64,000 bases of DNA, taken from a virus (taxonomy: Duplodnaviria > Heunggongvirae > Uroviricota > Caudoviricetes). The translations under genes and the position numbers were made by a program. The notes beneath the pieces were generated by a model, which searched no databases, had not been told where the DNA came from, and saw only the letters and a program-made list of their open reading frames with translations. The first letter of the stretch is position 1; every line of letters starts with the position of its first letter. Positions 30,076 through 63,452 of this stretch are shown here, in pieces. The stretch lies in IMG/VR virus record IMGVR_UViG_3300017565_000001, positions 141,741-205,740 of that record; one strand, 5' to 3'.

Positions 30076-30246
30076 AGTTGTTGACATGTGGCATTCCGTT
30101 TGCTAAAGTATGATCTGTGGTGCAGATTGCTAAATAGATTTGTCGCAACACTGCACAAAATTTTCACAAATAGTTATTGCAAACCCGAAAAGGTTCATGT
30201 ACTATTTGTTCTGTTGATTATTAAATTTCTCGAAAAGGAAACTTTC

Positions 30247-30357
30247 ATGAACGCTTATTCATATTTCTCGTACTGCTCGGAGACCGAAGGGTCGTCGCGC
30301 GGCTACGGCTATGAATGCGGATATGAGGGTACGTTCGGGGGTTGGCGAATGCGATAA
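30247..30357 (+). CDS. attenuator leader peptide 1 (36 aa, Tyr/Ser/Glu/Gly/Cys-rich)
   Basis: AAGGA RBS; MNAYSYFSYCSETEGSSRGYGYECGYEGTFGGWRMR directly before terminator and tRNA array. Confidence 0.8.
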   Translation: MNAYSYFSYCSETEGSSRGYGYECGYEGTFGGWRMR

Positions 30358-30420
30358 GCGTTCACCTAGCGAAAGCTAACAACCCTCGAAGCGTAATAGT
30401 TTCGGGGGTTTCGTGTTTTA
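30324..30420 (+). promoter_or_regulatory. attenuator 1: antiterminator 30324-30334/30380-30390 competing with terminator 30381-30392/30399-30410
   Basis: TTCGGGGGTTG pairs with CAACCCTCGAA (11 bp); AACCCTCGAAGC/GTTTCGGGGGTT (12 bp) followed by TCGTGTTTT. Confidence 0.8.
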
Positions 30421-30435
30421 GATGTTGAGATTTAC

Positions 30436-30522
30436 GGGTGGTAGGTGCGCTGGGCGCTAACTTGCCTCGAAAACAAGCCCCTCCAGTGATGGGGGATGGT
30501 TCGATTCCATTACTACCCGCCA
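30436..30522 (+). tRNA. tRNA-Ser(CGA), probably 8/4 acceptor/T-stem form
   Basis: GGGTGGTA/TACTACCC, long variable arm, G73, CCA. Confidence 0.8.
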
Positions 30523-30534
30523 AGAACGTTTCGT

Positions 30535-30619
30535 GTATCAGATGGTAAACTGGCTAAATCAGCTGTCTGTAAAACAGTCGCCTCCGGGCTTGTAGGTTCG
30601 ATTCCTACCTGATACACAA
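30535..30619 (+). tRNA. tRNA-Tyr(GTA)
   Basis: type II cloverleaf; ends ACAA (CCA not encoded). Confidence 0.9.
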
Positions 30620-30633
30620 AACGTTTTTGAAAT

Positions 30634-30718
30634 ATCCTGTGATGACGGCTGGGTACCGTCAGAAGACTTTCAATCTTCCCTGTTCCACAGTGGGGTTCGA
30701 TTCCCCCACAGGATACCA
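30634..30718 (+). tRNA. allo-tRNA-like species with TTC (Glu) anticodon, 8/4 fold, long variable arm
   Basis: ATCCTGTG/CACAGGAT; TGACGG/CCGTCA D-stem; GAAGA-CTTTCAA-TCTTC; CTGT/ACAG V-arm; GGGG/CCCC T-stem; CCA. Confidence 0.7.
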
Positions 30719-30727
30719 AGTTTTAAT

Positions 30728-30812
30728 GGGGATGCGGCTCAGATGGCGAGGGGCGGCTGACTGTAAATCAGTTCTTTCGGGTGAGTAGGTTCGAATCCTT
30801 CCATCCCCACCA
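30728..30812 (+). tRNA. tRNA-Tyr(GTA)
   Basis: cloverleaf with CCA. Confidence 0.95.
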
Positions 30813-30819
30813 AGTTTTT

Positions 30820-30895
30820 ACTCTGTTCGTCTATCGGTTAGGACGCTAGACTTTCAATCTGGAAAGACGGGTTCGACTCCCGTACAGAGTGCCAG
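30820..30895 (+). tRNA. tRNA-Glu(TTC)
   Basis: cloverleaf with CCA. Confidence 0.95.
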
Positions 30896-30905
30896 AATTA
30901 TTCCA

Positions 30906-30992
30906 GTCTTACTGATGAGCCCTAATGGGCGAAACAGTTGCAGGGAAAGATGGTGTTTCCGCCCCCATCAAGTATCTGTAGCTGTCTGAGAC
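30906..30992 (+). ncRNA. hammerhead ribozyme (type I); predicted cleavage after C30986
   Basis: stem I GTCTTA/TGAGAC, CTGATGA core, stem II GCCC/GGGC, GAAA, stem III CAGTTGCAG/CTGTAGCTG, GUC cleavage triplet. Confidence 0.9.
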
Positions 30993-31000
30993 ATGTTTGT

Positions 31001-31075
31001 ATTGCCGTTGACTTCTGGTGAGGTCTCCAGGCTTTCAACCTGGCTAGGCGAGTTCGATCCTCGTCGGCAATACAA
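31001..31075 (+). tRNA. tRNA-Glu(TTC)
   Basis: CCAGG-CTTTCAA-CCTGG; ends ACAA. Confidence 0.85.
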
Positions 31076-31086
31076 AGATGTTTCAT

Positions 31087-31183
31087 GTAGGGGATGTTCC
31101 GTAAGGCTGACGGTAAAATCGATAAAAGTGTGATGGGTGCTGCCCTAAACACCCCAGAGGTTCGAGTCCTCACCCCTACTCCA
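31087..31183 (+). ncRNA. tRNA-like RNA without a canonical anticodon loop
   Basis: GTAGGGG/CCCCTAC stem, T-arm GAGG-TTCGAGT-CCTC, TCCA end. Confidence 0.6.
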
Positions 31184-31192
31184 AGTTTTAAT

Positions 31193-31280
31193 GGGTTCCT
31201 TTCCCGCCGGCGGTCTGTAAAACCGTTGCCTAATAAGGTGGGTTGGTTGGCGTGAGGTTCGAAGCCTCGGGAACCCACCA
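31193..31280 (+). tRNA. non-canonical tRNA-Tyr(GTA)-like RNA lacking a normal D-arm
   Basis: GGGTTCC/GGAACCC, GCGGT-CTGTAAA-ACCGT, T-arm, CCA; only 10 nt between acceptor and anticodon arm. Confidence 0.7.
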
Positions 31281-31289
31281 AGTTTTAAT

Positions 31290-31364
31290 GCACCGTTCGT
31301 CTATCGGTTAGGACATCGCCCTTTCAAGGCGGCAAGATGGGTTCGATTCCCATACGGTGTGCCA
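31290..31364 (+). tRNA. tRNA-Glu(TTC)
   Basis: cloverleaf with CCA. Confidence 0.95.
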
Positions 31365-31421
31365 GTTGACCTCGTATTCATTTGATGCCATAATGGTAAG
31401 AATGTAAACGAGGAGAACGAT

Positions 31422-31646
31422 ATGGCTGATCGCGTGACCCTTCGGGGTAAGCTGATTGATGGGCAGTATGATCGCGAAATCGCGGATGCTGTTATTCAAG
31501 AAGCACGCAAGACGGTTGATGTCCCAACCCAGAACATTTACGTTTGTGGGTCCTGGGGTGGATACGTCACTATCAGTTGTAATGTACAAGGATTTTGTGA
31601 TGCCCTAGTTGTCGCTGCCCGGAACATGGGGCTTGACGTTCAATAA
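31422..31646 (+). CDS. hypothetical protein within tRNA array
   Basis: GAGGAG RBS, own promoter-like TTGAC..CATAAT. Confidence 0.7.
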   Translation: MADRVTLRGKLIDGQYDREIADAVIQEARKTVDVPTQNIYVCGSWGGYVTISCNVQGFCDALVVAARNMGLDVQ

Positions 31647-31655
31647 GGAGGCAAC

Positions 31656-31799
31656 ATGAGAGCATTTGGTAGTGTTCGTGGTAAATACTGTGAGTGGAGA
31701 TTCACTGGTAGATATTACGGACGAAGCAGAATTTTCAATGCGGGGAAACTTGAAATCAAGTCCCGCAAACGTGGACGGAAATGGTCCACAGATGATTGA
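31656..31799 (+). CDS. small basic peptide (47 aa)
   Basis: AAGGAGG RBS; MRAFGSVRGK... Confidence 0.45.
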   Translation: MRAFGSVRGKYCEWRFTGRYYGRSRIFNAGKLEIKSRKRGRKWSTDD

Positions 31800-31807
31800 C
31801 CGATTAC

Positions 31808-31881
31808 GCGGGTAAGCTCGAGGTGAGTCGCCGGCCTTCCAAGCCGCGCAGAGTTGGGTTCGATTCCCACTATCCGCTCCA
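31808..31881 (+). tRNA. tRNA-Gly(TCC)
   Basis: cloverleaf, U73, CCA. Confidence 0.9.
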
Positions 31882-31999
31882 GTTTTGAATGTGAGAGAAA
31901 TCTCCTGGCTAGTCACAAGGGAACGACAGAATCGGGGCAACGAGCCTTAACCTTGCCCGAAGAACGGAAATATCCGTCTACGTCGTTACGTTCGTTTTT

Positions 32000-32074
32000 G
32001 CAGGATTAATTCAGTGGTAGAATGTCTGCTTGCCAAGCAGAATGTCATCGGTTCGAATCCGATATCCTGCTCCA
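32000..32074 (+). tRNA. tRNA-Gly(GCC)
   Basis: cloverleaf, CCA. Confidence 0.95.
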
Positions 32075-32082
32075 AGTTTTAT

Positions 32083-32158
32083 GCGTGGGTAGCTCAGTTG
32101 GTAGAGTACCTGGTTGCCAACCAGGACGTCGCGGGTTCGAACCCCGTCCCACGCTCCA
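32083..32158 (+). tRNA. tRNA-Gly(GCC)
   Basis: cloverleaf, CCA. Confidence 0.95.
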
Positions 32159-32166
32159 GTTTACAT

Positions 32167-32257
32167 GTTCCGGTGGCCGAGTTGGCTTAGGCAGCGGTCT
32201 GCAAAACCGTTAGCGGGAGAAATCCCCACGCAGGTTCGAATCCTGTTCGGAACTCCA
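32167..32257 (+). tRNA. tRNA-Cys(GCA) with long variable arm
   Basis: GCGGT-CTGCAAA-ACCGT, GGGA-GAAA-TCCC V-arm, U73, CCA. Confidence 0.85.
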
Positions 32258-32330
32258 AGATGCTTGACTTTGATGCCATATGAACATAACATATGGCATC
32301 AATTGTTTTGAGCCACTGACAAGGAATCCA

Positions 32331-32606
32331 ATGAGCGTTCGATACACGGCAATCCTCGCATTCGGAAGAGAATTCAAGTCCAAGGGCGACATCGAGGATT
32401 TCTTGGAAAGCCATGGCTATGATCCCCAGGAGGAATGGCCCAATGGTCTCGAATGCATTTACCTGAACCGCCTGGATGGTGAAGAACCGATCCTGGGTTG
32501 GGAGATCGAGGTCGATGCTGGTGTCCCAGAACTCCAGAAGGAATGGCAGGAGATGTTCCCCAACAGCGAACCCGCTGACGCAATTCTCGCGGTGCAAATG
32601 TCATGA
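32331..32606 (+). CDS. hypothetical acidic protein
   Basis: AAGGA RBS. Confidence 0.65.
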   Translation: MSVRYTAILAFGREFKSKGDIEDFLESHGYDPQEEWPNGLECIYLNRLDGEEPILGWEIEVDAGVPELQKEWQEMFPNSEPADAILAVQMS

Positions 32607-32887
32607 GCCGCACTCGCAAAGACAAAGCCAATCACTTCCTGCATCACACCAAGATCCAGGGCACTGGCCTGGTGTATCATGGCGACACCAAACGCAAGTA
32701 CACGGAAGATCAAGTACCGGGTGATGTGAAGCCCATGATGGAGAAGTTGAATTACGACTACAACACGGGTCATCGCCTTGGCAACAATCGCAAGTCGGCA
32801 GCAAAATCCAAGGTACATGATCGTCGAATTGCTCGAGCTAAAGATAGCTCGGTATTCCGTCGAGAATTGAAGGATCGTGATGTCTGA
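32603..32887 (+). CDS. hypothetical basic protein
   Basis: overlapping start. Confidence 0.6.
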   Translation: MSRTRKDKANHFLHHTKIQGTGLVYHGDTKRKYTEDQVPGDVKPMMEKLNYDYNTGHRLGNNRKSAAKSKVHDRRIARAKDSSVFRRELKDRDV

Positions 32888-33392
32888 CGATCCGTTTGAG
32901 AAATACCAGGCTGAACTTGCGTCGGTGGGATTGACATCCATTGATGGGAGTATCAACTTTCGACTTAACGATCGAATCCACAGTATCGGTCCTGATTGGG
33001 TTGGGCCCATTCATAAGTTCAAAAACTTCCGCAAGCACACCAAGAATGTTGAGCGTGTTGTTCGTTGCCACGAACGGAATGGTGCGAAGGTGTTGCTTGT
33101 GACTAACACGTATTTCATCCCAACCAAAATAATCGATAATCCTGAAACTGGTCGGCGCCAGCGAGTACAAGACACTTCAAAACCAATAGAAGAAAATATT
33201 CGAGTGTTGTTCGCAGGACGTGGACGAATCGTATGCGACTTCTTCGTTGGTCCCCGAGATCAAACTCTCTCGTTTGATCAGGTGCGGTATACCCTGAGTG
33301 AGTTCTTCTCACTCAGTCCTGAGCGTCAGGACGAAACTATCGAACCCGATCCGTTCGTCCGCATGGTTGCGCAGACGGCTCGTCAGATGTAA
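32877..33392 (+). CDS. hypothetical protein
   Basis: ORF track. Confidence 0.65.
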   Translation: MMSDDPFEKYQAELASVGLTSIDGSINFRLNDRIHSIGPDWVGPIHKFKNFRKHTKNVERVVRCHERNGAKVLLVTNTYFIPTKIIDNPETGRRQRVQDTSKPIEENIRVLFAGRGRIVCDFFVGPRDQTLSFDQVRYTLSEFFSLSPERQDETIEPDPFVRMVAQTARQM

Positions 33393-33427
33393 TTCCTTGG
33401 GTCCATAAATATCCGAAAGGAGAAACT

Positions 33428-34078
33428 ATGGACCGCTCTGCCATTCTTGACTTGCTCTTCAGCAAGTCCAATCCCACAATTCATTATTACTTGGAACAAG
33501 TTGTTGACACTCTGCTCGCTGCTGGTGTCACAGTCAAGATCCAGGATACCACTCAGGTTTTTCTGGATGGTGATACCCTCGGCTGTTCTGGCTATTTCAA
33601 CAACGAACCACTCGAGTTTGCTGTGGCGGTGGGTAAACCATACGAAGCGTGGCTGCGAATTTTCTTGCACGAATTCTCGCATTTTGAACAATGGCAGGAA
33701 GATCCAGAAATGTTCGCTCGCCGGTCATCTGATGTTGATCTCCTGTTTTCTTGGTTGTCTGGTGACATCGAGATATCTGAGGATCATCTTAAGACGTGTA
33801 GAGACAACGCTATCTGGATCGAACATGATTGCGAAAGTCGTACGATCAAGAAGTTGTATCAACATGGATTCTACGCCATCATAGATGTAGCGTCATATAC
33901 TCAAATGGCAAATGCTTATTTCAACTTCTATCACTACGTGGTTGAACAGAAAGTCTGGTACAAAGCTGGCAGGGAACCCTACACTGTTTCTGAAGTGTGG
34001 AATTCTTTCCCAACTGAACTAGTTCAGTTGACTGAGCTGACTGACAGCCAACGCAATCTCTACAGTCTCTGCGTGTAA
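33428..34078 (+). CDS. putative zinc metallopeptidase-like protein
   Basis: FLHEFSH (HEXXH) and downstream E.DCE; ATAAATA box upstream. Confidence 0.6.
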   Translation: MDRSAILDLLFSKSNPTIHYYLEQVVDTLLAAGVTVKIQDTTQVFLDGDTLGCSGYFNNEPLEFAVAVGKPYEAWLRIFLHEFSHFEQWQEDPEMFARRSSDVDLLFSWLSGDIEISEDHLKTCRDNAIWIEHDCESRTIKKLYQHGFYAIIDVASYTQMANAYFNFYHYVVEQKVWYKAGREPYTVSEVWNSFPTELVQLTELTDSQRNLYSLCV

Positions 34079-34165
34079 AGAACTTTACTCCCCTGGGTTT
34101 ACTAGCTTGATTGTTGCCAATATTGGCAATAGAATCAGCGTCCCAATATTCTCCCAGGAGACGTA

Positions 34166-35224
34166 ATGAGCGATACCCAACCGATCGATCTGGTGGTGAC
34201 TTTCGACACCACCGGTTCCATGTATCCGTGCTTGACTCAGGTGCGCCGCACTGTCGATGCACTGGCAGCTCGCATGTTTCGCGAGATTCCCAACCTGCGA
34301 ATCGGTGTCATCGCTCACGGCGATTACTGCGACGCCCGCACCGCCTATGTGACCAAGCATCTGGCCCTCACCAATGACCCCAATGCGGTGTCCTACTTCA
34401 TCAAGAACGTGGAAGCCACTTATGGTGGCGACGCGCCCGAGTGCTACGAACTGGTTCTGCATGAAGCCCAATCCATGCAATGGCGTGATGACGCCAAGCG
34501 CCTGCTGGTCATGATCGGCGATGACATTCCTCATCCGCCGGCCCACAACCCCAAGCGTCTTGACTGGCGCACGGAAGTTCAAGCATTGACGGCACAAGGT
34601 GTTCTGGTCCATGGTGTCCAGTGTCTGAACCGCCACTATGCGACGGCTTTCTACAAAGGCCTGAGTGACATGACGGGTGGTTTTCACTTGAACTTGAACC
34701 AGTTCGCCGAAGCTTCCGACATGCTGTTGGCTGTTGCCTACCAGCAACAATCGCCCGAAGCACTCGATTCGTTCGAGCAGGAAATCGTCACCAACAAGAA
34801 GATGACTCGTGGTCTGTCCGACATCTTCGCTCGTCTGCGACGCGATCCCACCAACGGCCGGTACCGCGAAGTCGATGCCCGCGCAGTGGACCCCAGCCGC
34901 TTCCAACAGATTCCGGTGCTGGCAGACGAACCCATTCGTGATCTGGTCCAGAACAACGGTCTGCCGTTCGTCAAGGGTCGCGGCTTCTACGAGTTCACCA
35001 AGCGCGAAACGATTCAGGCCAAGAAGGAAGTCATCATCCTGGACCAGGACACTGGCGACATGTACGAAGGTGCGGCTGCCCGTGAAGTTCTGGGCTTGCC
35101 TACTGGCACCAACATCGACATAAGCCCCACGTTCGATCGTGATCGCTACAAGGTGTTCGTGCAAAGTACCAGCGTGAACCGCGCACTGAAGGCCGGCACG
35201 ACGTTCCTGTACGAAACTGCATGA
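34166..35224 (+). CDS. von Willebrand factor A (vWA) domain protein
   Basis: DLVVTFDTTGSM (DxTxS MIDAS), GGDAPE, IGDDIPH. Confidence 0.9.
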   Translation: MSDTQPIDLVVTFDTTGSMYPCLTQVRRTVDALAARMFREIPNLRIGVIAHGDYCDARTAYVTKHLALTNDPNAVSYFIKNVEATYGGDAPECYELVLHEAQSMQWRDDAKRLLVMIGDDIPHPPAHNPKRLDWRTEVQALTAQGVLVHGVQCLNRHYATAFYKGLSDMTGGFHLNLNQFAEASDMLLAVAYQQQSPEALDSFEQEIVTNKKMTRGLSDIFARLRRDPTNGRYREVDARAVDPSRFQQIPVLADEPIRDLVQNNGLPFVKGRGFYEFTKRETIQAKKEVIILDQDTGDMYEGAAAREVLGLPTGTNIDISPTFDRDRYKVFVQSTSVNRALKAGTTFLYETA

Positions 35225-35227
35225 GGT

Positions 35228-35776: not shown

Positions 35777-35789
35777 ATAATCACACGAT

Positions 35790-35879
35790 GGGTAGGCAAA
35801 TCGATTGGTGACGAAACCTGCTTGGAAAGCAGCCGAGTGCGAAAGCGCCTTAGGAGTTCGACTCTCCTTCTACCCGCCA
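35790..35879 (+). tRNA. tRNA-Ser(GGA)
   Basis: type II cloverleaf, G73, CCA. Confidence 0.9.
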
Positions 35880-35939
35880 AATCTCTTGACGTTCTGTCAT
35901 TGATGCCATATCATTTTGATATAAATTCAAAATTACGAT

Positions 35940-36140: not shown

Positions 36141-36236
36141 TATTCCCATGGTGGGGCTCTTAGGGGCCCCATTCTTCATTTGTTTTGTTTTTATTCTGTC
36201 GCAGAACCCCATAAATAATTCAAGGAGGGTTCAAAT

Positions 36237-36707: not shown

Positions 36708-36715
36708 GGTGATAA

Positions 36716-39406: not shown

Positions 39407-39425
39407 ATATCATATAGAAGGTTTT

Positions 39426-40163: not shown

Positions 40164-40357
40164 ACGGGGATAGCTCAGAGGTAGTAGGTATGGGACTGAC
40201 TCGCGCAGTTAGTTACCGCCCGCCAATAAACTCATAGGTTCAGGCAGTCGTGGAGTTGATATCACCACAGTGGCTGGCGCTGAAATGAAAGCTTTGTTGG
40301 AAGAGCGTCGGCTTGATAAGCCGAAGGTCGGTGGTTCGAATCCATCTCCCCGTACCA
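40164..40357 (+). tRNA. tRNA-Ile(GAT) with ~118-nt insertion in the D-loop
   Basis: ACGGGGA TA GCTCAG [insert] TTGGAA GAGC, TCGGC-TTGATAA-GCCGA, T-arm, TCCCCGT A CCA. Confidence 0.8.
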
Positions 40358-43209: not shown

Positions 43210-44283
43210 ATGTCTTACAAGCACGACACCCTCATCTACATCGGACGCTTCCAACCCTTCCATAATGCCCACCTGCAGACGATTCTGCACGCCCTGACGC
43301 TCGCTGAACGAGTGGTTGTGGTGATCGGCAGTGCCAACCAACCACGTGATGACGCCAACCCGTTCACTGCCGCGGAACGCGAGCAGATGATCACGGCTTC
43401 CCTGAAAGAAGCAGGCTACGATCTGAGAGCTCACGCCCACAAGGATCGCGTCCGTTTCACCTACGTGGAAAACACCATCTACAACAACCCCCTGTGGGCT
43501 CTGAATGTGGTAAAGGGCGTGGAAGAACACCAGGTCGGCACTGACGTCAAGCTGATCGGTCACACTAAGGATGAATCCAGCTTCTATCTGAAGATGTACC
43601 CGCAATGGGGCACGCCCATCGAAATGCCACTGGTTGAAGTTCTGGATGCGACTACCATCCGCAGCATGTACTTCAGTGACAAGTGCAATCTGAATTTCTT
43701 CAAGAGCGTTGCACCCCACGCGGTAGTGGACTTCTTGGGGACGTTCATGCAAACGGACACCTACAAGTACATCGTGGAAGAAAGCGAATACATTCGCAAC
43801 TACCGCAAGCAATTTGAACACCTCAAATATCCACCCACGTTCGTGACTGGTGATGCCGTAGTGTTCAAGGACAACCACGTGATCATGATCGAACGCCGCG
43901 CAGCGCCAGGCAAGGGCCTGATGGCTATCCCCGGTGGCTTCATGAATGCTAATACCGATCCTGACGCTATGGAAACGGCAATTCGCGAACTGTTCGAAGA
44001 AACCAAGATCAAGGTTCCCGAGAAGATCGTTCGCAAAAGCATCGTGGAAGAAAAGATCTTCAGCGCGCTCAACCGTAGCCGCCGTGGCCGTGTGATCACT
44101 ATCGCGCAATTCATCAACCTGGATGATCCGGACAATCCCGGCCTGCCCAAGTTGAAGGGCAGTGATGACGCAGTCAAGGCAGTGTGGGTTCCCCTGCACC
44201 AGATCTCACGCCAGAATTGCTTCGAGGACCACTACGACATCCTGACCTACTTCATGGGTCGATACAACAATCGCGCCCGATAA
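43210..44283 (+). CDS. nadM: bifunctional NMN adenylyltransferase / ADP-ribose pyrophosphatase (NadM-Nudix)
   Basis: IGRFQPFHNAH (HxGH-type), GSAN..NPF, PGGF......AIRELFEET Nudix box, GSDDA. Confidence 0.95.
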   Translation: MSYKHDTLIYIGRFQPFHNAHLQTILHALTLAERVVVVIGSANQPRDDANPFTAAEREQMITASLKEAGYDLRAHAHKDRVRFTYVENTIYNNPLWALNVVKGVEEHQVGTDVKLIGHTKDESSFYLKMYPQWGTPIEMPLVEVLDATTIRSMYFSDKCNLNFFKSVAPHAVVDFLGTFMQTDTYKYIVEESEYIRNYRKQFEHLKYPPTFVTGDAVVFKDNHVIMIERRAAPGKGLMAIPGGFMNANTDPDAMETAIRELFEETKIKVPEKIVRKSIVEEKIFSALNRSRRGRVITIAQFINLDDPDNPGLPKLKGSDDAVKAVWVPLHQISRQNCFEDHYDILTYFMGRYNNRAR

Positions 44284-44344
44284 AATGCTTGATTTTGTTG
44301 CCAGTTGATACCAAACTGGCAACACTTCTTCTCAAAGGACACAA

Positions 44345-44617
44345 ATGCCCTGTTATGATGGACGCGATTCGCAAGCGGCGATCGCAATTGAGCAACGCGA
44401 AGAAATCGCGTTCCTGGAAGCTGCACTTTGCGCGACCCTCCGCGCCCTGGATGCAACAGCAGCCAAACAAAAAGATCTCGTCAAGATTCTCGGTCCCTCC
44501 GATGATGGCGTGGTCAACTATCCCCTGATCGACTACGAACGCGCGGGCATTTCCAAGGAGCGCCTGCGCGAGTGGTGGAACGTTCACCGCAAGCGTGACT
44601 CGGTCACTGGTAACTGA
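44345..44617 (+). CDS. hypothetical protein
   Basis: AAGGA RBS; WW..HRK.D C-terminus. Confidence 0.65.
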   Translation: MPCYDGRDSQAAIAIEQREEIAFLEAALCATLRALDATAAKQKDLVKILGPSDDGVVNYPLIDYERAGISKERLREWWNVHRKRDSVTGN

Positions 44618-44696
44618 ACACTCATGCTGAAGATGGTCTTCAGCAGAGAACCCTCAACGGATAGACCGTTGAGCCAACTTAGATAGGGAATCTATC

Positions 44697-46175
44697 ATGT
44701 TTGAAAATATCCTTCCTTCCAACTTCATCCTTGCTTGTGACACGTACAAGTTCGACCACTGGGCCCAGTACCCCGCCGACACGGAGCAAATCTATGTTGT
44801 CGTGGTGCCTCGCAAGCCCAGCAAGTATGCTGACAAGATCGTGGCAATGGGCCAAACGTTCGTGGCTGAAATTCTGGCCAACGTCCGTATTACCATGGAC
44901 ATGATCGACGAAGCCGAACTGGAAGTGAACCAACAAGGCTATGACTTCAACCGTTCCGGCTGGGAATATATCGTCAAGGAATTTGGCGGTCGTCTCCCAC
45001 TCCAAGTCTTCGCGGTCGAAGAAGGTCGTATCGTTTTGCCCCAAACGCCTGTCATGGGTCTCATCAATACTGGCGGCAAGCCTAACGCTTGGTTGCCTGG
45101 CTATGTGGAAACGTGGGTCCAGCAAATCGTGTGGAAAATGTCGACTGTCTCGAGTGTTGCTCGCGCTTGCCGACTGACCATTCGCGAATACATGGAAGCC
45201 ACCAGCTCATCCCTCGCAGGCCTGGATTGGGCGCTCCACAACTTCGGCGATCGTGGTGCTGACAGCCCCGAAGAAGCACCTGTCATGGCTGGTATCGGCC
45301 ATGCAGCTCTGTTCAACGGTTCCGACTGCGCCCGTAGCAACCGTTTCATCAAGAAGATGTACGGTTACGACAAGGCCGCCACCAGTTCCGTCATCGCAAC
45401 TGAACACTCCAGCATGTGCGCCAATTCCGACGCCCGTGAAAAGGATGACTTCGGTGCTGCTCTGATGGCCGTTGAACGTCTGGAACACGCTGTGAAGCGC
45501 ACCCAGAACGGTATTGGTGTACCCGTGGTTTCCGCTGTGATCGACACCTACGATCCGCGCCGCTTTGTGCGCGATTACATGGGTGATCGTCTCAAGGATC
45601 GCATCGTTAATTCCGGTGGGAAGATGGTGATGCGTCCTGATAGCGGCGATGTTCTGGTCGAACCATCCATGGTCGCCCGTGACATCGAAGCCACCTTCGG
45701 AGCCCCGCTGAACAGCAAGGGTTACAAGGAATTCCCCGCTTACGTGGGTGAAATCCAAGGTGACGGCGTAAAGGTCACCACCGTTGGTCCCATCCTGAAG
45801 GCTTTCGCTGACAGTGGCTTTGCTACTGCTGGCCTAGTCCTGGGTATGGGTGGTGGTATTACCCATGAAGGCGGTCGTGATGACTTCAGCTTCTCCATGA
45901 AGGCTATTGCCCGTTTCGACGGCACTCGCTGGATTCCGATGTTGAAGGAACCCAAGACCGACACCAGCAAGAAGTCGCTCACTGGTCTCGTTCGTTGCCG
46001 TGAAAACGCTGACGGCGAACTGGAAGTCTTCGATGCCCTGAAGGGTGGTCAACTTCACAGCTTCCTGAAGCCCTGCGCAGGTTGGCAGCTCTGGGTTGAA
46101 AACGGTTATCGCGTCTACCGTCAAAAGTGGGACGATGTCCGTGCTCGCGCCCGTGCTGACAGTCCGTCGGTCTAA
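44697..46175 (+). CDS. nadV: nicotinamide phosphoribosyltransferase (NAMPT)
   Basis: DTYKF.H, LHNFGDRG, ATEHS, IDTYD, RPDSGD, QGDG, GMGGG, FSMKA, K.S..G. Confidence 0.93.
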   Translation: MFENILPSNFILACDTYKFDHWAQYPADTEQIYVVVVPRKPSKYADKIVAMGQTFVAEILANVRITMDMIDEAELEVNQQGYDFNRSGWEYIVKEFGGRLPLQVFAVEEGRIVLPQTPVMGLINTGGKPNAWLPGYVETWVQQIVWKMSTVSSVARACRLTIREYMEATSSSLAGLDWALHNFGDRGADSPEEAPVMAGIGHAALFNGSDCARSNRFIKKMYGYDKAATSSVIATEHSSMCANSDAREKDDFGAALMAVERLEHAVKRTQNGIGVPVVSAVIDTYDPRRFVRDYMGDRLKDRIVNSGGKMVMRPDSGDVLVEPSMVARDIEATFGAPLNSKGYKEFPAYVGEIQGDGVKVTTVGPILKAFADSGFATAGLVLGMGGGITHEGGRDDFSFSMKAIARFDGTRWIPMLKEPKTDTSKKSLTGLVRCRENADGELEVFDALKGGQLHSFLKPCAGWQLWVENGYRVYRQKWDDVRARARADSPSV

Positions 46176-54627: not shown

Positions 54628-54636
54628 GGAATAATT

Positions 54637-55186: not shown

Positions 55187-55417
55187 TTGAAATTGCACGT
55201 TTTGGATTATTGTGGTGAATACGGGGAATGCACGGTCTTTTTCGGCAACAACCTTACCAAGCCAATTGACATCATTGATGGAAACGATGCCACTTGGCGC
55301 CACGAATATTTTAATCCAGTTCTAGCACAAGTCGGAGTTGAGGTTGTTCACCTTCGTCAAGATAGCTTTGATGAAGCAGCACTTGAGGCCATGGTCGCGG
55401 AGTATTACGGTTATTGA
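55187..55417 (+). CDS. hypothetical protein
   Basis: AGGAG RBS, TTG start. Confidence 0.55.
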   Translation: MKLHVLDYCGEYGECTVFFGNNLTKPIDIIDGNDATWRHEYFNPVLAQVGVEVVHLRQDSFDEAALEAMVAEYYGY

Positions 55418-55487
55418 TAAATAAATTTGACTACTGGCAGGAAAGCAGTAGAATAGAGTTCTGATGCAGCAACAGCGCATCAACAAT

Positions 55488-57917: not shown

Positions 57918-57987
57918 CCAGGTTCCCTTGATCCCCAGTTGCCATTCCTTTAGATTGACTGGTAACTTATCTTCATGTTGATAAACC

Positions 57988-58359
57988 GTGAACATTCTGT
58001 CCAAAATAATTAAATTCTTCCAGACACTCACTGCACCGTTAAAAAATCAGCCCATTGAAAAATGGCTGCTGGTGCGAACGTATGTGGTGGATGTTACCGT
58101 CACCCGCTCACCAGAAACAGACAGAGTAGGTGAAACTGGATTCGCGTATGCTTACATGTTTGAATCCGAATCTGGTAAGCGGCGAGTTGAATTTGGATGC
58201 AGTCTTTCTGGCTTTGATGCCGAGACATCATTCAAGAAATTGCGAGACTGGGCCGAACATGTTTATCCATGGGTGAATGGTCGGTATTTGGCCAATACGC
58301 CAACTTATTCCGAAGCTGAAAGCTTGGATGTTGCGGCAAGGCTCAAGGATTGTTCATGA
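57988..58359 (+). CDS. hypothetical protein, paralog B1
   Basis: FESESGKRRVE ... YPWVNGRY...P.Y. Confidence 0.7.
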   Translation: MNILSKIIKFFQTLTAPLKNQPIEKWLLVRTYVVDVTVTRSPETDRVGETGFAYAYMFESESGKRRVEFGCSLSGFDAETSFKKLRDWAEHVYPWVNGRYLANTPTYSEAESLDVAARLKDCS

Positions 58360-58703
58360 AGACACTTCAAACATGGTTCAAAAATCTGTTCACCCGCAAG
58401 CGTGAATACCTGGTACATACCCTTGAACTGACTATCACAATCAATTACGTGAATCAGTTCAAAGAAGTCAGTTATACGGAAAACGACGTAATGTTTCGCA
58501 TCCACTTGTTTGAATCAAACAAAGGCAAGCGACGTTATGAAGTTTTCTGTACCAGTAGTCGTTGTGATGCTCAGGGAATCGTAAAACGTCAGACTGAGTT
58601 CCACGATATTGTATATCCATGGCTTCATGGGCGATATGTTGAAGGTATCCCTCATTACACACAAGTCGCAGCAGAAGACCTCATGAAAAAGTTGGGTGAA
58701 TAA
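58356..58703 (+). CDS. hypothetical protein, paralog B2
   Basis: FESNKGKRRYE ... YPWLHGRY..IP.Y. Confidence 0.7.
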   Translation: MKTLQTWFKNLFTRKREYLVHTLELTITINYVNQFKEVSYTENDVMFRIHLFESNKGKRRYEVFCTSSRCDAQGIVKRQTEFHDIVYPWLHGRYVEGIPHYTQVAAEDLMKKLGE

Positions 58704-59038
58704 TGAATTGGCTGAAGAAACTCTTTACTCCTGAACCTCCCCCACCACCTCCGCCGCCGCCCGAGCATTGGCTTCATGTTCACATGATTGAAGAGAAGCG
58801 TAAAGTGGAGGATCGGGATGTTCTGTTCTATCTTCATTTTTATGAATCCAATCGTGGAAACCGTAAGGTTGAACTGACTAGTTCATACTATGATGAATGT
58901 AAGGCATCTACCTTTCTGGGACAGATGTTTGCATACAACACCAAAGCCAGACCATGGTTAAGTGGTCGCTACGACCCTGATATTCCACGTTATGTGGAGG
59001 TACCAGCCGTGGATGTGGCCAACAAGTTATCACAATAA
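58703..59038 (+). CDS. hypothetical protein, paralog B3
   Basis: YESNRGNRKVE ... PWLSGRY...IP.Y. Confidence 0.7.
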   Translation: MNWLKKLFTPEPPPPPPPPPEHWLHVHMIEEKRKVEDRDVLFYLHFYESNRGNRKVELTSSYYDECKASTFLGQMFAYNTKARPWLSGRYDPDIPRYVEVPAVDVANKLSQ

Positions 59039-59140
59039 TGGTTACAAGGTGGCGATGAATATTCATCGCCATTCACTTGACTGGCATTTTCTTTCGTGTA
59101 TCATTCACATACGGTAAACGAAACGGCAAAGGAGCCATAA

Positions 59141-59323
59141 ATGAGCAAGTCCTACAAGCACATGAACGCAGAAACGGCCGAACGTGCTCGCAACGTGAAG
59201 AACGCTCGTCGCAACCGCCAAAATCTGCGTTCGCAGTTCAGCGGCATGGACCCCGACTCCACCATGGAACGCCATGTTGAACTGGCGATGGCTCGCGCCC
59301 CGCGCAATAAATCCAGCTACTAA
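59141..59323 (+). CDS. hypothetical basic protein
   Basis: AAGGAG RBS. Confidence 0.6.
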   Translation: MSKSYKHMNAETAERARNVKNARRNRQNLRSQFSGMDPDSTMERHVELAMARAPRNKSSY

Positions 59324-59631
59324 TGGCTGATGATAGTACTCAAGAGCTCAGCTTTGTCTGGGCTCTTTCGCCACCTGATCTCCTGAACGATATGGACAAG
59401 GCTTGGGCCAAAGCCAAGTTTGGTATTGAATACCAAACCGGTTATGTGATTCAGATTGCCAAAGAGTTCGTCTTTGATAATTCCTGGGTTCAACCTCTTT
59501 TCACGGTTGCGTTCTTTGAACGCTCTGGTGCATACGGCGAAGAGTTCACGTCTATTACGATTCGCAGGACCACCTTTGTTCACACATACAACGTTGAACT
59601 GGCAATGATGTTGAAACTGATGTTGCGTTGA
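59323..59631 (+). CDS. hypothetical protein
   Basis: C-terminal ELAMMLKL. Confidence 0.6.
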   Translation: MADDSTQELSFVWALSPPDLLNDMDKAWAKAKFGIEYQTGYVIQIAKEFVFDNSWVQPLFTVAFFERSGAYGEEFTSITIRRTTFVHTYNVELAMMLKLMLR

Positions 59632-59637
59632 TACAAC

Positions 59638-59958
59638 ATGACTGACTCACGCTACGAATTTCAAGATCCTGATTTTCCCATGTTCGTTGGTCCTGGGGGC
59701 TTCTTCACCAAAGCGGTTGTTGAAAAATGGTGCAAGCGCGAACCATTGATGCGGGGTGGAATCATATTTCAGATTTCTGATAAATTCTGGGATGGTCCAT
59801 ACAACAGTGACATTGGTCCCAAGTACATCGAACCCTTGAAGTCGATATTGGACTCAGACCCAAGACGCCGCATCTATGTGTCTGCTGGTTTGCAGCACTT
59901 TGTATGGACGGATTCTCCCGACAGTCAGACTGCTCTGATGTTAGCCCTTTACCCATAA
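59638..59958 (+). CDS. hypothetical protein
   Basis: ORF track. Confidence 0.6.
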   Translation: MTDSRYEFQDPDFPMFVGPGGFFTKAVVEKWCKREPLMRGGIIFQISDKFWDGPYNSDIGPKYIEPLKSILDSDPRRRIYVSAGLQHFVWTDSPDSQTALMLALYP

Positions 59959-60191
59959 TTCATATGAAATTTGAAAAGATTGCCCAAGATGCTCTGCATT
60001 TGTCCAAGAACATGACCGAGGCAGAACTTATCGCCACAATCAAATCCCTAGAGGATCGAATCGAGCGATACAAGATCACAGTCGTCAACTACCCACCTGA
60101 ACGCATGAAGAAACATGGCGAGCCTTACCTAACATATCTGAGGGACAAGCTTGCCACCTTTGTTGATGAGCTAAAGAGTCGCCAACCATAA
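59904..60191 (+). CDS. hypothetical protein (start likely MKFEK ~59964)
   Basis: ORF track. Confidence 0.55.
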   Translation: MDGFSRQSDCSDVSPLPIIHMKFEKIAQDALHLSKNMTEAELIATIKSLEDRIERYKITVVNYPPERMKKHGEPYLTYLRDKLATFVDELKSRQP

Positions 60192-60220
60192 TTGCTATCC
60201 TGTTGCCATTCCTATAGAGT

Positions 60221-60436
60221 ATGGTCTCAAAGGAGGCCTTCTTTATGGCACAAACACTAACTCTGGAAGAATTTGACGAGCAATTCAATGGTGCGCCCAT
60301 TGACTTGGAAGAGCTGGCACGATACGCCACAAGCGTCGAAGACGACGTAGAACTCGCTGACGCAGCTGACGCCTTTTTGGAATCTATGGAAGACTTCCGT
60401 TCTGAACTGGCTGCACGAAATATTGAGTTAGGTTGA
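60221..60436 (+). CDS. hypothetical acidic protein (start likely MAQT)
   Basis: AAGGAGG RBS. Confidence 0.6.
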   Translation: MVSKEAFFMAQTLTLEEFDEQFNGAPIDLEELARYATSVEDDVELADAADAFLESMEDFRSELAARNIELG

Positions 60437-60624
60437 AGATTTCAAAGCTTCGTCATAAATATGTTGACAAGCAAAACGATTGTGCGTAAAGTACGATCTC
60501 GCAAGTGAGAAATCACAAGCAACAAGAAATTTGAGATGACATCAAAAAGTTCTTGCAAGTTTGGCAAGCAATTGTTAGACTTGAAACTGTTGTAGGTTGT
60601 TTCTAACGAAGCAGCTTGCAATTT

Positions 60625-60871
60625 AGGATTGGTACAGCAAACTCCAAAATCTACTTAACCGTCGATGTTGCTGGACTTAATCGTTGCTGAGGAAACTCAG
60701 CAGGGCATCTGGGGTCTTGAATGACTCCGTATAGATGACCCCATTCCGCAAGGGTGTTGATTAAGGTGTGCGGCAACTAGGTTCATGACCGAAATCATGA
60801 TATTGTTGGTAGAAACCAACGGGGCACGTAGGACCCTGAACGTGTCTTATAGAAGGGGGACCGCAATCCTG
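60625..60871 (+). ncRNA. large ACAGCAA-scaffold RNA with multi-hairpin insert
   Basis: AGGATTG/CAATCCT closing stem, TACAGCAAA, ends ATCCTGTTA like the 39490 element; at least 5 internal hairpins. Confidence 0.55.
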
Positions 60872-61060
60872 TTAACCCCCACTGAAAAGTGGAAAAATTC
60901 ATTGGTGTAGTGTAAAAACTACACCTTGTGAACAAGGTTAAAAATTTTGTTGTTTTATCACAAAGTATTTGACACTGTTTGCTAAATAGATTTACCATAA
61001 ACGTATTGTTAATTGCTGAAGACATTGTGTCCAAGGCACTTTCTAGGATTAGAGACTGAA

Positions 61061-61189
61061 ATGAAACCCTTTTTCCATCAACCCGTCGTGAAAGCGCTGA
61101 GCTTGCCCGCGATGTTTGCCGCCCAATGGCAAACCCGCAGTCAGCTTCGCAATATTCGCGATAATCGGGTAGGGGTCTTAGGAACGTAA
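61061..61189 (+). CDS. attenuator leader peptide 2 (42 aa; not in ORF track)
   Basis: MKPFFHQPVVKALSLPAMFAAQWQTRSQLRNIRDNRVGVLGT directly before terminator and tRNA array. Confidence 0.75.
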   Translation: MKPFFHQPVVKALSLPAMFAAQWQTRSQLRNIRDNRVGVLGT

Positions 61190-61254
61190 GTTCAGTCAAG
61201 CGCATACGCTTAACTAAGATCCCTAGAATGTAAAAGTTCTAGGGATTTTTGTTT
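61172..61254 (+). promoter_or_regulatory. attenuator 2: antiterminator 61172-61181/61214-61223 competing with terminator 61219-61228/61237-61246
   Basis: GGGGTCTTAG/CTAAGATCCC (10 bp); ATCCCTAGAA/TTCTAGGGAT followed by TTTTGTTT. Confidence 0.85.
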
Positions 61255-61426
61255 GGCAAGCGAACCGTGAAAAATGAGGAAACGAGCTCCTCGATTCACA
61301 CGGCAAAAAGAGAATCAAAGGGGCGGAGCTAGGGCATGAACACTGGGCGATAACCAGTTAGTAAGAACTAGTTCATATGTGAGTGTCTGTACGTTGGCAT
61401 TCACATACGTTCAGAGAGTTCTTTGT

Positions 61427-61503
61427 CTGGGATTAGGAAAGTCAGGTTAATCCATTTGGTTTGGAACCATAGGGCCCCGGTTCGAATCCGGGATCCCAGA
61501 CAA
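61427..61503 (+). tRNA. tRNA-Pro(TGG)
   Basis: cloverleaf; ends ACAA. Confidence 0.8.
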
Positions 61504-61539
61504 AGAGCTCACTGAACAGCAAAGAATGAAAATTCTTTG

Positions 61540-61619
61540 CTCCGCAGAATCCAAGCTTGGTGCAAGGACTTGACTGTTAATCAATGATTAGCTGGGTTCG
61601 ATCCCCAGATGCGGAGCAA
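61540..61619 (+). tRNA. tRNA-Asn(GTT)
   Basis: TTGA-CTGTTAA-TCAA, T-arm; ends GCAA. Confidence 0.8.
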
Positions 61620-61631
61620 AGAGTTTTCAAT

Positions 61632-61708
61632 GGGCAGGTGGTGAGAAAGGTTAGTCCGAGATCCTTACAAGATCTAGCATGTCAGTTCGAGTCTGACCCT
61701 GCCTACCA
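61632..61708 (+). tRNA. tRNA-Val(TAC)
   Basis: AGATC-CTTACAA-GATCT; weak D-stem; CCA. Confidence 0.85.
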
Positions 61709-61725
61709 AGTTTTGTAGTATCTGA

Positions 61726-61800
61726 TGGGGTGTAGTGAAATGGCTATCACAGCTGACTTTGACTCAGCTATTTCTGGTTCGAATCCAGACACCCTTGCCA
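61726..61800 (+). tRNA. tRNA-Gln(TTG)
   Basis: cloverleaf, CCA. Confidence 0.95.
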
Positions 61801-61821
61801 GAAATCAAGAGATTATTTAGG

Positions 61822-61897
61822 GGTGGCTATAGTTCAATGGCTAGAATTGCTGACTGTGAATCAGCGGAAGAGGGATCGAAACCCTCTAGTCACCCCT
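61822..61897 (+). tRNA. tRNA-His(GTG)
   Basis: G-1:C73, GTG anticodon, atypical T-loop ATCGAAA. Confidence 0.9.
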
Positions 61898-61909
61898 AAA
61901 TGATCTCAT

Positions 61910-61985
61910 GCAGATGTGACAGTGATGGTTCATGTGCTAGTTTGAAAAACTAGATATGTTGGTTCGATCCCAACCGTCTGCACCA
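61910..61985 (+). tRNA. tRNA-Phe(GAA)
   Basis: CTAGT-TTGAAAA-ACTAG, CCA. Confidence 0.9.
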
Positions 61986-61992
61986 AGTTTGA

Positions 61993-62072
61993 TGGGGAGT
62001 GAGTGCAAGTGGTCTAAGCCGACTGGTTCTGAGCCAGTATGTTCGTAGGTTCGAATCCTACCTCCCCCGCCA
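61993..62072 (+). tRNA. tRNA-Gln(CTG)
   Basis: ACTGG-TTCTGAG-CCAGT, CCA. Confidence 0.9.
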
Positions 62073-62093
62073 ATTGCAGTAGAAAAGTTCAAC

Positions 62094-62169
62094 GGGTCGT
62101 TGACAGAGCGGTTTATGTACCGGACTCTTAATCCGTGCCAGGTGGGTTCGACTCCCACGCGACCCACCA
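62094..62169 (+). tRNA. tRNA-Lys(CTT)
   Basis: cloverleaf, CCA. Confidence 0.95.
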
Positions 62170-62175
62170 AATTAT

Positions 62176-62249
62176 ATCCATGAGCCGGAAGATTGACGGT
62201 GCTACCATCAGGTAGTGAAAGACGATTGAAATGATCTCCATGGGTACCA
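62176..62249 (+). ncRNA. tRNA-sized CCA-ended RNA with no anticodon loop or T-loop consensus
   Basis: ATCCATG/CATGGGT A CCA; GCTACC-ATCA-GGTAGT hairpin. Confidence 0.5.
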
Positions 62250-62260
62250 AGTTTTACGCT

Positions 62261-62335
62261 GGTCTGTTCATATAATGGTTATTATGCTGGACTGTCTATC
62301 CGGACACACGGGTTCGATCCCCGTACAGACCGCCA
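62261..62335 (+). tRNA. tRNA-Asp(GTC)
   Basis: cloverleaf, CCA. Confidence 0.95.
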
Positions 62336-62388
62336 AGTTTCACAGTGTATTGTAGGTCCCCGAGATCTCTACACAAACCAAGTTTTAT

Positions 62389-62472
62389 CCCCCGGTGGCT
62401 AATCCAAATCTGGTACAGGTAGCGTCCTCAGACGGCGTGCCTCTGTCGGTTCGAATCCGACCCAGGGGACCA
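62389..62472 (+). tRNA. tRNA-Leu(CAG), short variable region
   Basis: GCGTC-CTCAGAC-GGCGT, A73, CCA. Confidence 0.8.
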
Positions 62473-62481
62473 ATTTTAAAT

Positions 62482-62571
62482 GGGCAGTTACCCAAGTGGT
62501 TAAGGGGACGGTTTGCTAAACCGTTAGGTCGGTCAAATGGCGCGTGGGTTCGAACCCCACACTGCCCGCCA
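62482..62571 (+). tRNA. tRNA-Ser(GCT)
   Basis: type II cloverleaf, CCA. Confidence 0.95.
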
Positions 62572-62593
62572 TATTTCTTTGAGCATGATTTGC

Positions 62594-62668
62594 TCCGGTG
62601 TAGCTCAGTGGTAGAGTAGCGGACTGTTAATCCGTTTGTCGCTGGTTCGAGCCCAGCCTCCGGAGCAA
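62594..62668 (+). tRNA. tRNA-Asn(GTT)
   Basis: cloverleaf; ends GCAA. Confidence 0.95.
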
Positions 62669-62679
62669 ATCATGTTTAT

Positions 62680-62754
62680 GCGTCCTTCGTTCAGTGGAAA
62701 GGACAGTGGGCTACGAACCCGCAAACGGGAGTTCGATTCTCTCAGGACGCGCCA
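62680..62754 (+). tRNA. tRNA-Arg(ACG)
   Basis: cloverleaf, CCA. Confidence 0.95.
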
Positions 62755-62916
62755 GAATTCCTCCTAGGAGGTACCACCCTGGAGGTGGGCTTTACGGTTG
62801 CCAAAGAGTGTTTGAGCGGAGCCTGTAGTTCAAACAACGACAACCGTACAGTAAGGAGCAGGAAGCGGTAACCAGGGATTGGTTAATTCTGATCCCTCGG
62901 TCCCACGGATTTCAAC

Positions 62917-62992
62917 ACCTGGTTAGCTCAGCGGTAGCAGCGGCGTCTTGATAAGGCGTAGGTCATTGGTTCGATCCCAATACCAGGTACCA
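62917..62992 (+). tRNA. tRNA-Ile(GAT)
   Basis: cloverleaf, CCA. Confidence 0.9.
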
Positions 62993-62998
62993 AGTTTA

Positions 62999-63105
62999 GG
63001 GTCATCCAGGAGGCGAGGTTGGGTTCGATTCCCAAACAATCTTAAGTGATTGTTGCTGGACGCCGCCGACGGGCACGATGAGTTCGATTCTCATGTGATC
63101 CACCA
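62999..63105 (+). ncRNA. tRNA-like RNA with two T-arms
   Basis: GGGTCAT/GTGATCC A CCA; TTGGG-TTCGATT-CCCAA and ATGAG-TTCGATT-CTCAT. Confidence 0.7.
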
Positions 63106-63300
63106 CCAATTAACCCCTTAAATGGGCACTCGCCGAACGTGGTAGGCGTATCTGGGGCTATTACGTAAATGCAGCCAGTAGCTAAGTAAAAACGACTCTT
63201 CCCAATTATCAGATTAAATTGGACCAATTCAATTTTTTCCTTGTGAGAGTGGCCGAAGCGATACTAGTTTGAGCCCAGTCCGAACTTCTCACAAGGTTTT

Positions 63301-63372
63301 CCCCCGGCCTGCGGACAGGCTTCGACGCTACGAACGTTGATTGCGGTGGTTCGAATCCACCTCGGGGGTCCA
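63301..63372 (+). tRNA. tRNA-Arg(ACG) with minimal CGGA-tetraloop D-arm
   Basis: CCTG-CGGA-CAGG; CGACG-CTACGAA-CGTTG; CCA. Confidence 0.8.
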
Positions 63373-63380
63373 AGTTTTAT

Positions 63381-63452
63381 GGGGAATGTACCGGAGTACA
63401 CACTAGGCTGGCAGTCTGGTTTTGATGGGTTCGACACCCATATTCTCCACCA
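63381..63452 (+). tRNA. tRNA-Ala(GGC) with minimal CGGA-tetraloop D-arm
   Basis: G3:U70, GTAC-CGGA-GTAC, CCA. Confidence 0.85.

Follow-up and report, generated by a model that had tools for sequence, protein, structure and literature searches.

The DNA stretch analyzed here, called the window, is the 64-kb segment at positions 141741-205740 of a single virus record of 424,529 base pairs (bp; 47.7% G+C). ARAGORN reports 57 genes on the whole record, including a permuted transfer-messenger RNA. Two big transfer RNA (tRNA) units lie in the window and follow a common order: a promoter region, a short open reading frame (ORF), a predicted antiterminator arm in the last codons of this ORF, an intrinsic terminator, and then the tRNA genes (Table 1). 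An earlier sequence-only reading of the stretch had described this shared architecture, and it is present in both units. Each big tRNA unit probably begins with a ribosome-mediated transcription attenuator that is codon-matched to its array. Below, we present the two units, the corresponding modules in related phages, the proposed switch, and the alternatives to it.

Leader 1 is strongly matched to its tRNA set. Ser, Tyr, Glu, Gly, and Cys account for 24 of 35 residues (p=1.7e-9 against the phage's own codon usage), and Lys, Pro, His, Gln, Val, Leu, Ile, and Asp do not occur at all. Four of the five Ser codons are TCG. Between codons 4 and 28 (30256-30330), 20 of 25 codons are strictly cognate to Ser(CGA), Tyr, Glu, Gly(GCC), and Cys. 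Over the whole leader, strict codons amount to 20/35 against a background of 16.5% (p=5.5e-8). The small-ORF background used throughout consists of the 2,128 ATG ORFs of 25-60 codons in the whole genome, and this level of match is unique among them (1/2,128). In unit 1, the antiterminator arm and the terminator 5' arm pair at -15.4 kcal/mol, a value equalled in 3% of dinucleotide shuffles. The first tRNA of array 1 begins 25 nucleotides (nt) after the stem of terminator 1.

Leader 2 is matched to its tRNA set modestly. It has 35 of 41 residues in the set that the sequence-only reading had assigned to array 2. It lacks Tyr, Glu, and Cys; Ser is encoded just by AGC or AGT, and Arg just by CGN. 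The composition counts and missing residues claimed for both leaders are exact. The assigned set makes up 68% of the proteome, and the residue match (p=0.009) is equalled by 11 of the 2,128 small ORFs. Against the entire transcription unit, 37 of 41 codons are cognate (p=0.018), and 20 of the small ORFs do as well. The four exceptions comprise CGG and another three codons that fall in the antiterminator arm. Met, Trp, and two Thr, which had been left unplaced before, are read by tRNAs past the window edge. Leader 2 samples 11 of 13 anticodon species and contains no codon that array 1 reads (0/41; p=6e-4). Pairing between the arm and the terminator 5' arm reaches -13.2 kcal/mol, which is equalled in 0.5% of dinucleotide shuffles. 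After the attenuator at 61217, the + strand has no further strong terminator until genome position 211791, which is some 30 tRNAs later and about 8 kb outside the window. The tRNA sets named by the sequence-only reading are recovered by ARAGORN and mostly by Rfam; the exceptions are Asn (61541-61617) and Leu(CAG) (62392-62472), which are called at the permissive ARAGORN threshold only. Rfam does not confirm the ARAGORN calls at 63300 and 63381, nor the call at 30634 in array 1.

Modules of the same kind are found in related phages. The VWA protein encoded at 34166-35224 was used as a query and gave 42 IMG/VR loci with 36-69% identity, and the tRNA regions of eight such records were taken. A blind scan of the phage and its IMG/VR relatives covered 253 tRNA-run starts and 377 ATG ORFs ending at most 300 nt upstream of them. 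The top two binomial scores belong to the G001 leader (p=2e-7) and leader 1 of the window (p=4.6e-6 against the first tight tRNA run). With permuted arrays, 2 of 300 trials reach the first score and 1 of 300 the second. In total, there are nine modules: the two window leaders and seven in six IMG/VR records, each with differing tRNA sets. The module recurs nine times as an ORF, a gap of 23-37 nt from stop codon to terminator stem, a strong terminator, a gap of 6-30 nt (178 nt in unit 2), and a tRNA. The Shine-Dalgarno sequences of most of the relatives' leaders are of the AGGA type. The leader at L069 begins some 13 nt downstream of the -10 of a TTGACA-17-TATATT promoter and lacks a Shine-Dalgarno sequence; it may be translated as a leaderless mRNA.

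Table 1. Features of the two tRNA units, promoter-region elements, and candidate leaders in related IMG/VR records (window coordinates unless a record locus is named)
Feature	Position	Strand	Details
Leader 1 ORF	30247 (ATG)-30357 (TAA)	+	36 codons plus stop; AAGGA 8 nt upstream of ATG
Predicted antiterminator arm, unit 1	30333-30344	+	Codons 29-33; complements terminator 5' arm
Putative attenuator terminator 1	30381-30419	+	12-bp stem (30381-30410), then T tract
tRNA array 1	30436-32257	+	Ser(CGA), Tyr, Glu, Tyr, Glu, Glu (31001, Rfam only), Glu, Gly, Gly, Cys
Internal promoter of array 1, sigma-70-like	31366-31394	+	TTGACC-17-CATAAT
Terminator closing unit 1	32270-32302	+	Strong
Leader 2 ORF	61061 (ATG)-61189 (TAA)	+	42 codons plus stop; weak Shine-Dalgarno; broad composition
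Predicted antiterminator arm, unit 2	61169-61179	+	Last six codons; pairs with 61214-61225
Putative attenuator terminator 2	61217-61254	+	13-bp stem with 6-nt loop (61217-61248), then T tract
tRNA array 2, in-window part	61427-63452	+	Unit runs on to genome position 210854, outside the window
15-mer TTGCTAAATAGATTT, copy 1	30127-30141	+	Exact; 105 nt before leader 1 start codon
15-mer TTGCTAAATAGATTT, copy 2	60979-60993	+	Exact; 67 nt before leader 2 start codon; in promoter spacer
15-mer near-copy	27475-27489	+	Two mismatches; abuts -35 of single tRNA-Thr promoter (TTGACA-16-TAGAAT); no leader
15-mer near-copy	55414-55428	+	Two mismatches; abuts -35 of single tRNA-Pro promoter (TTGACT-16-TAGAAT); no leader
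Unit 1 best sigma-70-like promoter	30081-30109	+	TTGACA-17-TAAAGT, TG-extended
Unit 1 weaker promoter-like site	30177-30205	+	TTGCAA-17-TACTAT; 8/12 matches, under tool cut-off
Unit 2 sigma-70-like promoter	60969-60998	+	TTGACA-18-TACCAT; 15-mer within spacer
G001 leader	L052:8876-8989	-	37 codons, Asn/Ser/Pro-rich; 11-bp terminator; ahead of Pro-Asn-Pro-Asn-Ser(TGA)
Leader	L069:3902-3976	-	Eight consecutive codons EWRERDRE; array Glu, Arg(ACG), Met, Trp, Asp, Arg(CCG)
Leader	L077:2763-2822	-	Ten consecutive codons YFICKFKEYM; array Cys, Ile, Tyr, Phe, Cys, Lys(CTT), Glu, Lys(TTT), Phe, Met, Tyr
Leader	L067:1633-1722		Thr/Gly/Val-rich; array Thr, Met, Gly, Gly, Val, Thr
Leader	L068:10036-10110		CCG, CCT, CCA; array Pro(CGG), Pro(GGG), Pro(TGG)
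Leader	L070:1743-1856		Broad leader, broad array
Leader	L013:8957-9043		Ambiguous

Leader peptide sequences are not conserved among the relatives; the match to their own arrays is. Leaders change with arrays in the further modules, and the leader at L077 uses both Lys codons. When leaders and arrays of the nine modules are scored against each other, the diagonal z-scores are all positive, from 1.0 (leader 2) to 7.0; the broad leader of G008, which precedes a broad array, has z=3.8. The true pairing gives the highest trace of all 362,880 permutations, which bears out the expectation of the sequence-only reading that leader codons co-vary with array anticodons in relatives. The signal is confined to the reading frame, where the summed z is 30.1, as against -4.3 and -5.0 in the other two frames. 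Of the anticodon species in their own array, leaders cover 91%, compared with 46% for mismatched arrays, and the true pairing is again the best of the 362,880 permutations. Synonymous choice was examined given the amino acid. The array-read codon is used at 52 of 73 positions, where 40 are expected from phage codon usage (p=1.3e-3). Because synonymous codon choice follows the array anticodons, the data point to leaders that sense isoacceptors and not amino acids alone. To judge from these comparisons, the relatives provide decisive support for codon-matched attenuators ahead of tRNA arrays.

The position of the predicted switch is also shared by the modules. Relative to the stop codon, the best complement of the terminator 5' arm is located at -22 to +12 nt in 9/9 modules, and it is stronger than in shuffles in 7/9. 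Nascent-RNA folding was limited to the RNA present before the terminator 3' arm emerges. In these folds, the terminator 5' arm is sequestered with the ribosomal A site anywhere on the cognate codons and is released once the ribosome is in the last 6-10 codons. There is no room for a separate promoter behind the terminator, since the tRNA starts 6-30 nt after it in every module except that of leader 2. In unit 2, the 178 nt between terminator and first tRNA contain no scored + strand promoter.

The features typical of a leader-peptide attenuator are mostly predicted in silico: an ORF with a start codon and a ribosome-binding site after a promoter, codon enrichment, a terminator, and a ribosome-dependent antiterminator. 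In the mechanism we propose, host RNA polymerase would transcribe the leader ORF and a ribosome would translate it. A ribosome that is slow on codons read by the downstream tRNAs would leave the segment in the last codons free to pair with the emerging 5' arm of the terminator. This antiterminator pairing would block the terminator, and the array would be transcribed. With fast decoding, the ribosome would reach the end of the ORF and cover the antiterminator arm, and the terminator would form. Termination would then fall 6-30 nt before the first tRNA, or 178 nt before it in unit 2. Charged tRNA of the encoded isoacceptors, of phage or host origin, would thus repress its own synthesis. Such a switch would follow OR logic, in which shortage of any sampled isoacceptor switches on the whole block.

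Simple feedback on the supply of charged tRNA accounts for the data just as well as sensing triggered by nucleases. Only tentatively do we consider an inducible counter-defence, in which about 55 phage tRNAs would be split into separately sensed regulons whose leaders poll isoacceptor loss and induce the matching replacement block. The triggers in that rather doubtful hypothesis would be host shut-off by the phage itself or the action of anticodon nucleases or PARIS-type effectors. Phage tRNAs are described as replacements for host tRNAs that PARIS or anticodon nucleases have cleaved (PMC10264068, PMC11464382). This gives a phage a reason to monitor and top up isoacceptors; both papers appear to deal with tRNA function and not with control by attenuation.

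Several observations weigh against codon-matched attenuation. Strict codons of leader 2 are not enriched when compared with the in-window part of the array (22/41, p0 0.50, p=0.37). The proposal that the leaders are tuned to their own arrays stands strongly for leader 1 and for the clade as a whole; for leader 2 it stands modestly by residues and by the full unit, and fails by strict in-window codons. The Shine-Dalgarno sequence of leader 2 is weak, and 178 nt of structured RNA separate terminator 2 from the first tRNA. In unit 1, the internal promoter at 31366 could drive Gly-Gly-Cys without leader 1. Two small ORFs with strong Shine-Dalgarno sequences, at 31422-31646 (74 amino acids) and 31656-31799 (47 amino acids), also lie inside array 1 upstream of Gly-Gly-Cys. 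The folds are not those of the classical case in every respect. Without a ribosome, nascent RNA is predicted to be antiterminated, and so to allow read-through, in 7/9 modules, unlike trp. No clear 1:2 hairpin could be established from the folds, and full-length minimum free energy folds pair the 5' end of the ORF with the arm region. When the full transcript is folded to equilibrium under a ribosome mask, the terminator forms wherever the ribosome is placed. Since the full-length RNA always folds as the terminator, the switch would have to be kinetic, as in classical attenuators, and the equilibrium fold was discarded as a test of it. Furthermore, such a module is missing from the majority of tRNA runs in these phages, and the nine modules were chosen partly by eye. 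This last point is countered by a set of 16 modules selected by fixed rules, several of them probably spurious, whose observed trace is reached by 0/200,000 permutations.

Leader 1 alone could be codon-tuned, with leader 2 serving as a general translation-rate attenuator or being an ordinary small ORF with a terminator, a reading that we find unlikely and yet worth keeping in view. The fit of leader 2 would then be mostly what any peptide gives in front of a block decoding about 76% of all codons. The strict in-window result, the full-unit match shared with 20 of the small ORFs, the lowest diagonal z, and the weak Shine-Dalgarno sequence all favor it. However, it does not account for the complete absence of codons read by array 1, nor for Ser codons that are only AGY and Arg codons that are only CGN. 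Three of the four non-cognate codons fall within the antiterminator arm, most of the anticodon species are sampled, and the antiterminator geometry is like that of the other modules. The score of the broad G008 leader with its broad array (z=3.8) also speaks against this reading.

It is very improbable that all leaders are ordinary small-protein genes with ordinary terminators, that the tRNAs come from leaky read-through or unrecognised promoters, and that the codon match is coincidental. Small ORFs and terminators are indeed common in these genomes, where 32 ORF-terminator pairs were listed, mostly unmatched. Coincidence would, however, have to produce the outcomes of the permutation, frame, and coverage tests. 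It would also leave unexplained why the array match alone is conserved among peptides that are not, why the tRNAs begin 6-30 nt past the terminators, and why 9/9 modules have the arm in the same place, at the stop codon. We give no more credence to a reversed polarity as in pyrBI, in which a ribosome close behind the polymerase blocks the terminator, so that fast decoding leads to read-through and stalling to termination. Occlusion of a terminator by the ribosome is established for pyrBI. It is disfavored here because the stop codon, 23-37 nt before the stem in all modules, is too distant for direct occlusion by a terminating ribosome, which would cover the antiterminator arm instead. Least probable is that tRNA is sensed directly, as by a T-box or riboswitch, through a switch that is RNA-only or binds protein, with the ORF incidental: T-boxes do sense tRNA and both leaders are more structured than shuffles (z of -4.0 and -5.2), but Rfam returns no T-box, known leader family, or other match for either leader at E up to 5, no specifier loop, T-box sequence, or stem I architecture is found, and the in-frame codon-by-codon match, absent from the other two frames, would remain unexplained.

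The attenuators proposed for the tRNA units resemble those of the enterobacterial ilvGMEDA (Ile/Leu/Val), thr (Thr/Ile), trpL, hisL, leuL, and pheL systems, in which a short translated leader is rich in regulatory codons. In these systems, as here, an intrinsic terminator precedes the structural genes, and the antiterminator is set by the position of the ribosome. The ilv and thr leaders also read several specificities with one leader. The differences are considerable. The genes regulated here are tRNAs instead of enzymes, and the sensed molecule would be the product itself. The codons chosen correspond to individual anticodons, a single leader serves up to about 13 specificities, and the setting is a phage. 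The arm lies in the last codons, where it would be covered from behind by a terminating ribosome, and no clear 1:2 hairpin was found. No similarity in sequence or in Rfam connects the two groups. The pheM leader of pheST, the phenylalanyl-tRNA synthetase operon of E. coli, is a case in which a component of the translation apparatus is attenuated via its own cognate codons. It controls a synthetase gene with a single specificity in a cell, whereas the phage units contain tRNA genes. T-box riboswitches likewise sense tRNA status and switch between terminator and antiterminator. Unlike the mechanism proposed here, they bind uncharged tRNA directly through a specifier loop and a conserved T-box sequence and need no translation.

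The logic of trp- and his-type attenuation is well known, and we found no published account of its use on tRNA genes. A full-text literature search gave no description of leader-peptide attenuation controlling tRNA genes, and neither tRNA genes nor tRNA operons come up anywhere in a survey of attenuators (PMC2965389). The reason for tRNAs in phages and the use made of them are described as debated for more than 50 years (PMC10264068). The control of phage tRNA genes has hardly been addressed so far. If the proposed mechanism is true, a phage measures the decoding speed of specific isoacceptors and feeds it back on tRNA synthesis, and the leader sequence shows which tRNAs the phage treats as one functional set. 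Attenuation of the trp/his type would extend to genes whose product is the sensed molecule. The leaders would also be compact, programmable, codon-specific sensors, and rival ideas on phage tRNAs (codon compensation, host shut-off, and nuclease evasion) would become testable with small reporters.

The sequence-only reading had also counted the identical 15-mer TTGCTAAATAGATTT as part of the shared architecture. The 15-mer is exact ahead of both arrays (at 30127 and 60979). It is also present, with two mismatches, ahead of two leaderless, near-consensus single-tRNA promoters. For this reason, it is taken as a promoter-region element of tRNA units and not as part of the attenuator, with a candidate role as an UP-like element or operator of tRNA promoters. 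All four copies are upstream of tRNA genes, and the two near-copies in the window compare with 0.16 expected by chance. The rest of the 424.5-kb genome has just two further sites with at most two mismatches, neither adjoining a tRNA gene. A function as the -10 or -35 hexamer of a sigma-70 promoter was rejected, as the offset from the best promoter-like sites varies between the units. A layout of -35, TAAATAGA, and TAC-A is common to the unit 2 promoter and the region upstream of the G001 leader, with the core TAAATAGA in the spacer of the -35/-10 pair in both. Homology between leader 2 and the G001 leader was considered and rejected; the alignment consists of shared promoter-region letters only, and the ORFs have no clear homology. 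At the tRNA-Thr promoter (27475-27523), the motif occurs twice about 34 nt apart, as TTGCTAAATAGTATT and then GTGCTAGAATAGATTT around the -10, and may represent a repeated binding site.

Searches for direct homologs of the units gave little. In five related records, leader 1 DNA matched nothing but tRNA segments, and the closest relatives, found via the VWA protein, have no tRNA array at the syntenic place. Pattern scans with the terminator stems gave no match for terminator 2 in metagenome contigs and none for terminator 1 in viral contigs. The sole metagenome match to the stem of terminator 1 (L081) was set aside: the terminator there is unrelated, follows a gene for a membrane protein, and is accompanied by no tRNA. 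An INPHARED DNA search with both units matched tRNA genes only, and no cultured relative was found. A neighboring protein of 746 amino acids has no relative in INPHARED or IMG/VR.

Population variants of unit 1 do exist. The public runs that contain the window stretch are soil and sediment metagenomes. In a contig from another soil sample, the leader 1 region is 5.6% diverged over 30225-30531, and the ORF is still open. It has three changes: T13A, GGA to GGT (a non-cognate to a cognate codon), and W33C. The antiterminator arm and both terminator strands are unchanged, three changes fall in the terminator loop, and the spacers have five changes plus a 2-nt deletion. With such small numbers, this pattern is consistent with the attenuator model and not decisive. 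In contigs from two other soil and sediment runs, 30725 is followed directly by 30821, and the second tRNA-Tyr (30726-30820) is absent. Because these contigs of close relatives are without the second tRNA-Tyr, the content of array 1 is variable within the phage population.

The long ORFs are mostly on the + strand, and the genes recognized include those of NAMPT, an NMNAT-Nudix fusion, and the VWA protein. The first two form a nicotinamide adenine dinucleotide salvage pair between the tRNA clusters (43210-46175), with the NMNAT-Nudix fusion at 43210-44283 and NAMPT at 44697-46175. Outside the arrays, 35790-35875 and 40287-40348 have weak or partial Rfam matches, one tRNA-Sec-like (29.9 bits) and one a truncated tRNA (44.8 bits); neither is called by ARAGORN. 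Between two tRNA-Glu genes of array 1, at 30904-30992, there is a hammerhead-like core with CUGAUGAG, a GCCC/GGGC stem, and CGAAAC. The corresponding Rfam Hammerhead_3 match, at 22.7 bits, stays below the cut-off of 48.5 bits (E=0.038, with 911 nt searched). Three further stretches inside the arrays (31130-31290, 31800-31880, and 62993-63299) carry T-arm-like GGTTCGA(A/T)TCC motifs and are strongly structured. Default ARAGORN and Rfam call no tRNA in them, and they may be non-canonical tRNA-like RNAs.

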